NCBI GenBank assembly: GCA_018992685.1
Contig: JACVGT010000018.1
Span: 224,001-288,000 of the forward strand
DNA from: Theionarchaea archaeon
GTDB taxonomy: Archaea; Methanobacteriota_B; Thermococci; Methanofastidiosales; SZ-28-30
DNA length: 64,000 bases
Direction: 5' to 3'
The position numbers and the translations under genes were made by a program. Positions 19,513 through 63,991 of the stretch are shown piece after piece. How positions within the stretch are numbered: the first letter of the stretch is position 1; the number at the start of each line of letters is the position of its first letter. Below the pieces are notes generated by a model. It was not told the DNA's origin and did not search any database. It worked only from the letters and a program-made list of their open reading frames with translations.

Positions 19513-19847
19513 GACTACTCCTACCTCCTTCATCCATATAAAACTTTCTACTGCGATAGGAACTTTATCTCGACGAGTGACATATGCAGCTGAACCCAAT
19601 AACATCTGCTTTGCCAGACTCAATACCCGCATTTTTTTTGGCTCTTTCTAAATTATCCACCGTAAATCGAATCCATTTCAATCTGAAACTCGGTGGATAA
19701 TTGCTCACGTCTGGAATAATATCTGAACAATCTAACACCAGAGGTTGTGATGGTAGTAGAAATGATGCGCCACTGATTCTGGGAATGCCAACAATTTGCC
19801 AGGAGTCGGCCAGCAAAGTATTTATAGATGTGCAGACCACCGATGAC

Positions 19848-21410: not shown

Positions 21411-21451
21411 ACCGAAAGCTTTATAAAGGAAAGTTACTACCAAAGTAGTAA
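21411..21451 (+). promoter_or_regulatory. Strong BRE-TATA promoter with palindromic operator
   Basis: ACCGAAAGC-TTTATAAA followed by the inverted repeat TTACTAC-caaa-GTAGTAA. Confidence 0.65.
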
Positions 21452-21530
21452 GTAATAAACACGACTTCAATCATATTCTTTCCTCCTTGGAGTCAGGCGA
21501 AATGTCTGGCTACCACCTTCTTTTCTTTTT
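21451..21530 (+). ncRNA. Candidate small RNA with anti-SD/anti-AUG loop
   Basis: Own promoter and no ORF. Stem GACTTCAA/TTGGAGTC with loop TCATATTCTTTCCTCC, hairpin CAGGC-GAAAT-GTCTG, then a T-tract. The next gene has its own TATA (~21637). Confidence 0.6.
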
Positions 21531-57430: not shown

Positions 57431-57776
57431 ATCAAGAGGGATTGTTGAATGGCTGCTGTCAGGCAGACCCCAGGTTAAGAACAGGTTCCCATTCTCACGA
57501 TGAAAGACAGCTTCATATCCTATGACTATCCCCTCCTCCTACCGATACTATTCGTTCAGGTCGTCCTCTGCGGCTCTATTTTCCTAAAATCGCTCCGCAA
57601 GTCTCTGTATTTCGCTGCACATTGAATATTGTGATTATAGTAAGAACGTGTCTTTTAAGGTTTATGGAAGAGAAAGAACAGGGACAGAGATGTGCTTCTC
57701 TCTCCCGGTGCGGAACCTACGTTGTTTGCGAACATTCAGATGAAGAGTACAGGTCAGATTCATACAGGACGAAGTA

Positions 57777-62005: not shown

Positions 62006-63304
62006 TCATACCTCTACGCGTTTCCACTTTTTCTCCATGAGGGAAAGATCAAGGTTACGCCACGCTGAATAGCGCCTGGTTCTCAGGTAGGGTGTCACCT
62101 GCTCATTCCCTGTAGAGATGGCCCACTGGATAAATCCACTTCTGGCAGGAGGGCCTGAAAACCGAATACGATTCTTCAAGTAGGACAACGCCTTCTCCAC
62201 TGTCTTTGTACTATATTCATGGTCCGCACACGGAGTGTGTGGTTTGGGAACAAAGGGAGAAATTGTGACCTTGGTACGCATTATCCTGGAAACCTGACGG
62301 GTCAGATCTACGATGTCTTGCAGGTCCCGGGATGTTTCTCCAGGCAGGCCCACCATGAAGTACAGCTTTATCCAGTGAGCATGCTCTGAACACAATCGAA
62401 CCTTTTTCAGGATTTCTTCATCTGTTATTCTCTTTCCCAGTGAGATTCGCAGCCTTTCACTCGATTCAGGAGCTATCGTCACTGTCCTCAAATCCGCAGA
62501 TCTGAGAATCTCTTCAGAAATCTGTTCAATTCTCAAAGAGGGGAGACTTATCCGATAGGGATGGCATATGTCTATGATTTCCAGAAGGTTGGAATGAGAG
62601 TCTGGTCCAATCAGTGACACTGTTTCAAACTTGGTGCACGTCTCAGCCTCCTCCAGAATCCCCTGTATATGGTCCAGGGGACGCTCCCTCTTCCTTCCTA
62701 TGCAATGGGAGACCATGCAGAATGAACACTGTCTCGAACATCCTCGCGACACCTCAAGTAAGAAGCTTCTGTAAAAAGCTTGAGTATATTCGCCCCACTG
62801 GATAGGTTGGTGCACAGGGTGATACTCCAGCTGAGAGAATCCTGCCTTCACTCTGTCTTCACATCCGGTAAACACCCCCTCAATATCTGAGAGCTCACCG
62901 TCCCTGTACTGATTCAAAAACTCTTCCAGGGACTGCTCAGCATCCCCCACAAATATATAGTCAATCACTCCCTTCAGTGGGAACGGGTTGTACGCAGACC
63001 TCCCTCCCAATATCTTCATCTTGTCTGGAAATTTCTGTGCTATCTCATAAACAGTAAAATAGTCCATTTCAAAACTGCAGGAAAAAGCAATAATATCAAA
63101 ATCAGCCAGAATAGAGTTAGATTCAATACTTTTCGGGAAATCCGTAAAAAATCGCTCACACTGGAATCCTTCCTGTTCATTGATAAAATTGTAGGCGAAG
63201 AGGAATCCTAGATTGCTGTTACCTGCTTTGTACACATTAGGATATACGAGAGCTATTCGGTGCTCTCCCTTCTTCCTTATGACACCGTACTCCAGAAAGT
63301 GCAT
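62006..63304 (-). CDS. Radical SAM protein with N-terminal B12-binding-like domain
   Basis: YPNVY..G.SNLG, EVSRGCSRQCSFC, TIAPES, LYFMVGLPGET, FVPKPHTP. Confidence 0.88.
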   Translation of the reverse strand: MHFLEYGVIRKKGEHRIALVYPNVYKAGNSNLGFLFAYNFINEQEGFQCERFFTDFPKSIESNSILADFDIIAFSCSFEMDYFTVYEIAQKFPDKMKILGGRSAYNPFPLKGVIDYIFVGDAEQSLEEFLNQYRDGELSDIEGVFTGCEDRVKAGFSQLEYHPVHQPIQWGEYTQAFYRSFLLEVSRGCSRQCSFCMVSHCIGRKRERPLDHIQGILEEAETCTKFETVSLIGPDSHSNLLEIIDICHPYRISLPSLRIEQISEEILRSADLRTVTIAPESSERLRISLGKRITDEEILKKVRLCSEHAHWIKLYFMVGLPGETSRDLQDIVDLTRQVSRIMRTKVTISPFVPKPHTPCADHEYSTKTVEKALSYLKNRIRFSGPPARSGFIQWAISTGNEQVTPYLRTRRYSAWRNLDLSLMEKKWKRVEV

Positions 63305-63354
63305 GCTCCACATGTGCCTCTATCCATAAAAACTCCCCTGTTGCAATATCGATT

Positions 63355-63395
63355 ACCGAAAAGTTTATATACTATTGATTAGCAATATTGATTAG
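63355..63395 (+). promoter_or_regulatory. Strong BRE-TATA promoter with repeated operator-like motif
   Basis: ACCGAAAAG-TTTATATA, then TATTGATTAG twice (63373, 63386). Confidence 0.65.
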
Positions 63396-63483
63396 ACCTC
63401 AGTTGTCTCCTACCTCAGGGGTCTTGCCGGGGCTTCGGCCCCGGTTCACACTCTCCAAGAGCATCACTCTCTTTTTTCTTTTT
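63394..63483 (+). ncRNA. Candidate small RNA with CU-rich anti-SD loop and cUUCGg hairpin
   Basis: Stem AGACCTC/GGGGTCT with loop AGTTGTCTCCTACCTCA; CCGGGGC-TTCG-GCCCCGG; T-tract. Both flanking genes are on the opposite strand. Confidence 0.7.
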
Positions 63484-63550
63484 GAAGAAAAGAAGAACTA
63501 GATTCTCCTGGATCCGCGTCACTGACCTCTTGAAGAAGGCGCGAATTCTC

Positions 63551-63991
63551 TCACCTCTTCTTTCTGAAGAAAAGCCAATTCTTGTCCGGTCTGAAAGCGA
63601 TGAGGCAGTACAGCCCTTTCAGCTTTTCACCCATGATGTTAATAACGATTTCCTTTTCTTCCCATTTCTCAGTGATATATGTACCGCTATCCCAGATTAC
63701 CACTGTTCCTGCCCCGTATTCTCCTTCAGTTATCGTTCCTTGAAATGTTGCATATGCTACAGGATGGTCCTCTGTTTGTACAGCCAATCGTCTGACACCT
63801 GATACGAGAGGCGGTTCCTTGGGGATGGCCCAGCTCTTGAGGACACCCTCCTTTTCCAGCCGCAAATCGTAATGGAGATGAGAAGCCTCGTGTCTTTGAA
63901 TGACGTACGTATTCCCTCTCCGTGCAGAGTTCCCTAAAGGTTCAGGCGTTTTCCTGAAATCCCGTTTTCTCTTGTGCTCTTCTAGACTCAT
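63551..63991 (-). CDS. Stand-alone LigD 3'-phosphoesterase domain protein
   Basis: [50 protein letters not shown]. Confidence 0.92.

Follow-up and report, generated by a model that had tools for sequence, protein, structure and literature searches.

A predicted anti-SD small RNA of Theionarchaea and its putative sponge RNA under a common operator

To our knowledge, the trans-acting sRNAs of archaea that have known targets are few, and the sRNA–sponge arrangement is known mainly from bacteria. In Methanosarcina mazei, sRNA41 and sRNA154 mask ribosome-binding sites with a loop-borne anti-RBS sequence, also within polycistronic mRNAs (PMC5867862); the parts of this review devoted to the two RNAs name no sponge, and the word "sponge" occurs in it 0 times. 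RosA of Bacillus subtilis is a single RNA of ~200 nt whose two G-rich sites bind the C-rich RoxS and FsrA, and RsaI of Staphylococcus aureus combines a C-rich target-binding region with sponge sites (PMC8216469). Among archaea, the only sponge proposal found by a search mainly of open papers is that of the cis-antisense RrrR(−) of Sulfolobus acidocaldarius, which forms an ncRNA–ncRNA duplex with RrrR(+) and whose sponge role was hypothesised by the authors (PMC5961385). Theionarchaea are mentioned in the open text of PMC12713403 only as relatives of Thermococcales.

By analogy, the RNA described here, RNA A, appears to work like sRNA41/sRNA154 and RoxS/FsrA–RosA/RsaI, being a member of none of these systems. 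Like sRNA41 and sRNA154 as the review presents them, A is predicted to be an intergenic archaeal sRNA with a loop-borne anti-RBS sequence; unlike them, it belongs to another lineage and has other predicted targets (envelope and division genes) and another regulator, with no Rfam or sequence link between them. Neither A nor its sibling RNA B nor the partner RNA S was found described in the literature by the same search, mainly of open papers.

The window analysed here is a stretch of 64,000 nt, positions 224001–288000 of contig C1 in assembly G000 (3.03 Mb, 45 contigs, coding fraction 86% by the genes called in this analysis). The comparison set consisted of G001 (same genus), G002 (84% complete), G003 (another genus) and the metagenome locus L097. 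Eight metagenome loci were considered in all, one with A, six with S and one unrelated; three of the six S loci are identical over the compared part and were counted once. The SD preference of G000 was derived from leader hexamers, no 16S gene being among the features listed. RNA A is flanked by a radical SAM gene, which is divergent to it, and by a convergent gene for a LigD 3'-phosphoesterase (LigD-PE). The promoter, 7-bp stem, loop, cUUCGg hairpin and T-tract listed in the earlier note are all present at 63355–63483 (Table 1), and there is indeed no plus-strand gene for them to serve, the sole plus-strand ORF of at least 100 aa at the element being a 106-aa shadow frame over the LigD-PE gene. 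Leaderless genes with this operator have a spacing from which we infer a start of A at 63394/63395.

Table 1. Features of the RNA A locus and of related loci (window positions unless a contig is named)
Feature	Position	Strand	Basis or remark
nrdJ ribosome-binding region, seed match	19518..19527	-	missing in orthologues; target rejected
Other anti-SD RNA of the window (21.4-kb RNA)	21411..21530	+	operator and seed unlike A; seed common with S 5' loop
CHAT/TPR gene leader, 8-nt seed match	57536..57543	-	sequence
Radical SAM gene (divergent)	62006..63313	-	PF19864 + PF04055; neighbour in G000, G001, G002, L097, not in G003
Consensus archaeal promoter (BRE 63355-63363, TATA 63364-63371)	63355..63371	+	matrix score 26; 5/5 orthologues
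Palindromic operator TATTG-N5-CAATA directly 3' of TATA	63373..63387	.	putative repressor position
Predicted small RNA A, ~90 nt	63394..63483	+	orthologues and sequence signals
Stem-loop 1 of A: 7-bp stem 63394-63400/63418-63424, 17-nt loop	63394..63424	+	fold, alignment
Seed of A, CUCCUACCUC	63407..63416	+	opening cost 1.4 kcal/mol
GC-rich cUUCGg hairpin of A, 8 bp	63426..63445	+	invariant in 4/4 copies of this genus type
ATCAC motif ahead of T-tract, possible second anti-SD element	63463..63467	+	4/4 tails; absent in G003
T-tract, predicted archaeal terminator of A	63472..63483	+	sequence; T-rich tail in all 5 copies
Separate T-rich tract, likely terminator of the convergent LigD-PE gene	63485..63497	-	sequence
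LigD 3'-phosphoesterase gene (convergent)	63551..63991	-	PF13298; place taken by other genes in G002, G003
Predicted RNA B, ~105 nt	G000 C10:8351-8457 (L128)	-	orthologues L129, L093, L098, L099, L100, L130
Predicted RNA S, orphan transcript, ~180 nt	G000 C10:8564-8745 (end approximate; L128)	+	same operator as A

From the promoter to the second hairpin, 96 of 96 positions are identical in G001, 93 of 96 in G002 and 88 of 96 in L097. The corresponding values are 756/900 (84%), 616/913 (67.5%) and 632/910 (69.5%) for the flanking coding sequence and 72%, 60% and 49% for the spacer; the flanking gene of G002 shares 66% of its amino acids. The seed is unchanged in G000, G001 and G002, and its last 9 nt are retained in L097. 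Stem 1 includes one G-U pair, and the substitutions of G002 in stem-loop 1 preserve pairing as G-U or C-G. The ATCAC motif is kept although the four tails diverge elsewhere. G003 has a fifth copy, diverged and with other gene neighbours, which retains the operator, the stem, most of the seed (with an A>G change and an altered 3' end), a second hairpin, there swapped for another one, and the T-tract. A covariance model built from the five copies gives one match per genome in 4/4 family genomes, which are its training sequences (in G000, 150 of 230 candidates were scored), whereas the best E value in the 30 remaining genomes of the order is 0.15. Covariation is not significant, 216 of 500 shuffles reaching the two-sided count on four distinct rows, with the hairpin-2 pairing out of register for the G003 copy.

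The fold of A beats chance modestly (z −2.9, with 1 of 200 shuffles as good), and conservation is the stronger signal. Since the minus strand reaches z −2.7, folding alone leaves the strand undecided; evidence for the plus strand comes from the cUUCGg loop, the G-U pairs, the separate T-tracts of the two strands and the change of neighbours. We consider it highly probable that A is a real plus-strand RNA, its transcription being read from these signals. Of six metatranscriptomes, which share almost no sequence words, four were compared with the element and four with the S/B locus, and no contig could be placed on either, a result that is uninformative as to expression. It would then be a conserved, lineage-restricted sRNA of a known working kind: it has its own promoter and terminator and no coding frame, and its conserved, accessible seed, shared with B, faces conserved ribosome-binding sites. 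The proposal of a stand-alone plus-strand sRNA whose loop would face ribosome-binding sites is supported, as is the view that the lineage has many RNAs of this type. The three LSM-family matches in G000 count for a trans-acting model.

Other RNA classes fit poorly. The suspicion that the element might belong to a known Rfam family of other function found no backing, with 0 gathering-level matches to Rfam 15 in the window; at E up to 5, nothing falls on the element except suhB/MmgR (RF00519), a weak match to the G003 copy (18.3 bits, E 4.9; gathering score 41) that leaves the window's copy unmatched. The suhB/MmgR architecture is reportedly an anti-SD loop followed by a hairpin, as in A. Box C/D guide RNAs are defined by C and D boxes, neither of which occurs within 63394–63483, Rfam being blank here too; an H/ACA guide RNA is a hairpin with a pocket and a K-turn or K-loop followed by a conserved ACA, and hairpin 2 of A has no pocket, while an ACA after it is missing in L097 and G003. 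A scan for sigma-70 promoters and intrinsic terminators, which is not designed for archaea, gave nothing on the element.

The promoter matrix finds 231 matches in G000, 222 of them intergenic, including tRNA-, 5S- and CRISPR-leader-like starts (judged by eye). The near-identity of the promoters of A and the 21.4-kb RNA is therefore real but denotes no special kinship; because this promoter is the consensus of the lineage, it supports transcription of A and not such kinship. Likewise, the repeated motif noticed between TATA and start exists, and is better read as the palindromic operator TATTG-N5-CAATA, which stands at the same offset after TATA in 15 of the 222 intergenic promoters and recurs in 5/5 relatives searched (reversed control pattern: 0 matches). 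Among the genes that bear it are those for an S_layer_C protein, a CARDB protein, an FG-GAP protein (weak match) and a HerA-TrmB protein; it is also found at several orphan RNAs and, in three genomes, at a wHTH gene (C22:36542 in G000) whose product is a candidate regulator, the Pfam and atlas leads being weak. Judging from their genes, many of which serve the envelope, the 15 promoters appear to form an envelope-rich regulon. The type-1 S-layer gene carries the operator immediately 5' of its BRE. By analogy with archaeal regulators in general, we take the position after TATA to mean repression and that upstream of BRE to mean activation. Genomes outside the family have short hairpin RNAs or leaders of their own under the same operator (L047, L106, L108, L051, L056). 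As regards position, the CdrS motif lies 41–110 nt upstream of starts according to PMC8406309, and the operator of A lies mostly after the TATA box.

The predicted RNA B is strongly conserved at seven loci, G003 included, and near-invariant across two genera. It has a terminal closing stem and two or three exposed seeds and has 9 nt of seed in common with A; its second seed matches the same leaders as the first, so that S-layer and other envelope-gene leaders are matched at two sites.

The motif GGTAGGAG occurs in the ribosome-binding region of 5/5 type-1 S-layer leaders (PF05124) from four genomes and of 0/3 S-layer leaders from outside the family. The A>G seed change of G003 stands opposite a U at the S-layer site, and the pairing is retained. 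The start of ftsZ2 pairs with A over 12–13 bp (−24.1 kcal/mol) in 2/2 cases (G001, G002), at a site overlapping the last codons of an upstream cdrS-like ORF, and the motif is present in 1 of 22 ftsZ2 starts of other families (26 loci tried, 4 without a row; 2 further loci left out). The ftsZ2 case comes from two related genomes, the gene not having been found in the G000 or G003 assembly. In G000 the cdrS–ftsZ2 locus is unassembled, and three genes for S-layer paralogues are cut by the contig ends of C13 and C31. The PF05123 profile detected no S-layer gene in 4/4 genomes, in which a protein query did find S-layer genes.

A ranking of all start regions by duplex energy did not discriminate targets, the S-layer site ranking 86 of 2713 genes; anti-SD seeds match many leaders. 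The rank of 1734 obtained for nrdJ carries no weight, because gene calling had missed its true start. Nor is the seed-plus-ATG pattern, which covers ATG starts and not GTG or TTG, enriched (48 sites against 40 for the control in G002, 32 against 57 in G001). In G001, 30 of the 32 pattern sites were examined as loci, the remaining two being S and the S-layer gene; in G002, 30 of 48 were examined as loci and 18 in 16 stretches, some ended by contig ends. The sole gene starts to turn up repeatedly among these sites were those of S-layer and ftsZ2. Both pair with B as well as or better than with A. Because the sibling has the same seed, the mRNA sites are not assignable to A alone, and B by itself could explain them.

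RNA S, arranged divergently to B on contig C10, has an anti-SD 5' loop and predicted tandem decoy sites for A and B. Its blocks complementary to the A loop, the A 5' stem arm and the B 5' end are nearly invariant in six distinct copies, among which the spacers vary and no ATG is conserved; the A site is present in 6/7 distinct copies, and in L098 and L100 no ATG follows it. Among 5475 pre-filtered genome windows other than A itself, none pairs better with the A 5' domain than S (−32.7; the next, at −32.1, lies inside a gene), and among 5529 windows S is the second best partner of B. It also tops 59 orphan transcripts as partner of A (next −24.1); over 58 orphan transcripts none of 150 shuffled queries matches its value, for A or for B, and for each of the six S copies one or more A variants score better than every one of 200 query shuffles. 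S was first noticed by eye, so these pairing tests are after the fact. The S of G003 has no A site (88 of 200 shuffles as good with the A of G003) and pairs with B through both seeds, and S and B were not found in the G002 assembly, which is 84% complete. Cognate A–S pairs are those of G000 and G001, which are near-identical, and perhaps L097/L100, a weak pair (48/200 shuffles) possibly not of one organism.

S is thus a noncoding partner with conserved complementary sites, and we regard it as a predicted double sponge for A and B. Like RosA, S is one RNA with sites for two sRNAs, and like RsaI it has a predicted target-binding region, as far as the cited text describes them; unlike both, it is not bacterial, is unrelated in sequence and carries sites complementary to A and B over the entire 5' domain of each, stem arms included. 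The predicted A–S pairing is, as in RrrR(+)/RrrR(−), one between archaeal ncRNAs; unlike RrrR(−), which on the published account is the reverse-complementary strand, S lies on another contig and has short blocks with sites for two RNAs. In its 5' loop S has the same sequence as the seed of the 21.4-kb RNA, and this loop fits both type-2 S-layer starts of G000 over 16 nt with no mismatch.

These observations can be joined in one model, to which we give a probability of about 50%: A would mask the type-1 S-layer and ftsZ2 sites and be titrated by the co-regulated S. A regulatory factor would repress A, S and ~13 other promoters from the site after TATA, and from the site immediately 5' of BRE it would activate the type-1 S-layer gene. 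With the factor off, A would rise, its loop masking the GGUAGGAGG ribosome-binding sites, and the leftover translation of S-layer-1 and FtsZ2 would be shut down. Pairing of S with A over 12 + 6 bp would open the A stem, and S would bind B at the next site, which may set a threshold or a timer, while its own anti-SD loop would fit the type-2 S-layer genes. Transcription, the regulator logic, translational repression and the titration by S are what we infer here, from sequence signals, promoter and operator, conservation and complementary sites. An sRNA and its sponge under one operator are an odd design, and this counts against the combined model.

The S site for A can also pair within S, and this gives room for a different, rather unlikely role in which A mainly switches S on, displacing an S arm folded on the S anti-SD loop, so that the freed loop would repress type-2 S-layer and permease mRNAs. 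In cis, S forms a duplex of −14 to −24 kcal/mol, which is less stable than the one in trans (−31.5 in G000), the S seed costs 2.2–5.1 kcal/mol less to open in 5/6 copies once the arm is blocked, seed and arm prefer each other reciprocally in L093/L099 versus L098, and there is the exact fit of the S seed to the type-2 starts. However, the gain in L100 is just 0.6 kcal/mol, the seed is already cheap to open (3–10 kcal/mol), the seed/arm covariation may be a single event, a likely pseudoknot goes beyond the model of the folding software, and the S of G003 has no arm for A.

It is also improbable, in our opinion, that A is a real anti-SD sRNA with other, weaker targets, the block in S being kept for S folding or for B. 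The many leaders matched by anti-SD seeds, the alignment fold, which pairs the block inside S, and the 9 nt of seed common to A and B would agree with this; yet by our reading of the alignments the cis fold leaves an invariant U of the block bulged and only the A 5' arm pairs with the GTC that is invariant in the second S block, and S ranks first genome-wide as the partner of A. Doubtful as well, though built from the same parts, is a circuit of RNA alone, where A and B would silence type-1 S-layer and ftsZ2 and S would trap them, be switched on by A through strand displacement and silence the type-2 S-layer genes.

Much less probable is the reading that there is no plus-strand RNA, as the earlier note had considered, and that the hairpins terminate the convergent gene, the TATA and operator serving the radical SAM gene. 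The TATA is TATA-like on the minus strand too, at a plausible distance to that gene, and the minus strand folds about equally. Against this, the convergent gene has a T-rich tract of its own and differs in G002 and G003, the G003 copy of A has no radical SAM neighbour, BRE and operator are oriented plus as in 14 other promoters, and a terminator would not hold the loop invariant at 68% flank identity.

The earlier note had proposed nrdJ as the target and had pointed to an 8-nt match in the CHAT-gene leader, and both matches exist. That A represses nrdJ is nevertheless highly improbable. The 10-nt match is perfect and lies 5 nt before the ATG, with a duplex of −19.2 kcal/mol in G000, but the site is missing in the orthologue leaders of both G001 and G002 (−8.3 and −10.8 kcal/mol), where the loop is identical, and the seed 10-mer occurs seven times in the genome, where chance alone would give ~6 occurrences of any 10-mer (6 Mb). 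We therefore reject nrdJ as the reason for loop conservation; its repression may be a species-specific side effect of A. For the CHAT/TPR gene, the orthologous 5' end was not found in three relatives. At 57517–57543 its frame extends upstream of the listed TTG to just past a strong SD followed by ATA, which suggests that the gene start may be non-standard, and a 13-codon ATG frame overlaps this extension. The grouping of A in one family with the 21.4-kb RNA did not hold: operator and seed differ, and the A covariance model does not score that RNA, which is absent from its five matches at E up to 10 with filters off. Finally, a small peptide from the TTG at 63404 has a negligible chance of being what the element encodes, the open frame of 32 codons in G000 reading 32, 50 and 19 aa in three genomes, with no silent change in its first 14 codons and no start in L097.

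Further orphan RNA candidates were seen in G000. Three promoter–hairpin–T-tract units with a common SD-like core (C6:11843-, C21:1042-, C27:76240-), copies of which also exist in G001 and G002, may be decoys or tiny ORFs; one such unit is followed, at C27 ~76060–76120 (−), by two short stretches that could pair with the S 5' loop. CU-rich sRNA candidates lie at C3:84000-, C24:22491-, C8:110891+, C23:9246-, C22:20461-, C3:107574+ and C9:61253+, the first two being only ~35 nt long and under the same operator as A, and the last resembling the stem arms of A. Paralogous orphan structured RNAs occur in the pairs C12:95791-/C22:43525- and C3:186364+/C15:82530+.

The seed, the sibling RNA, the decoy RNA, the S-layer and ftsZ2 sites and the shared operator are all readable from the sequence, and the sRNA–sponge circuit predicted from them around A would be unusual for archaea. 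Should the circuit of RNA alone be true, it would be a natural toehold switch together with a trans-encoded double sponge in an archaeon, toggling S-layer paralogues and cell division in Theionarchaea. If the combined model holds, envelope and division genes would be under layered control by RNA in archaea and not just in bacteria.
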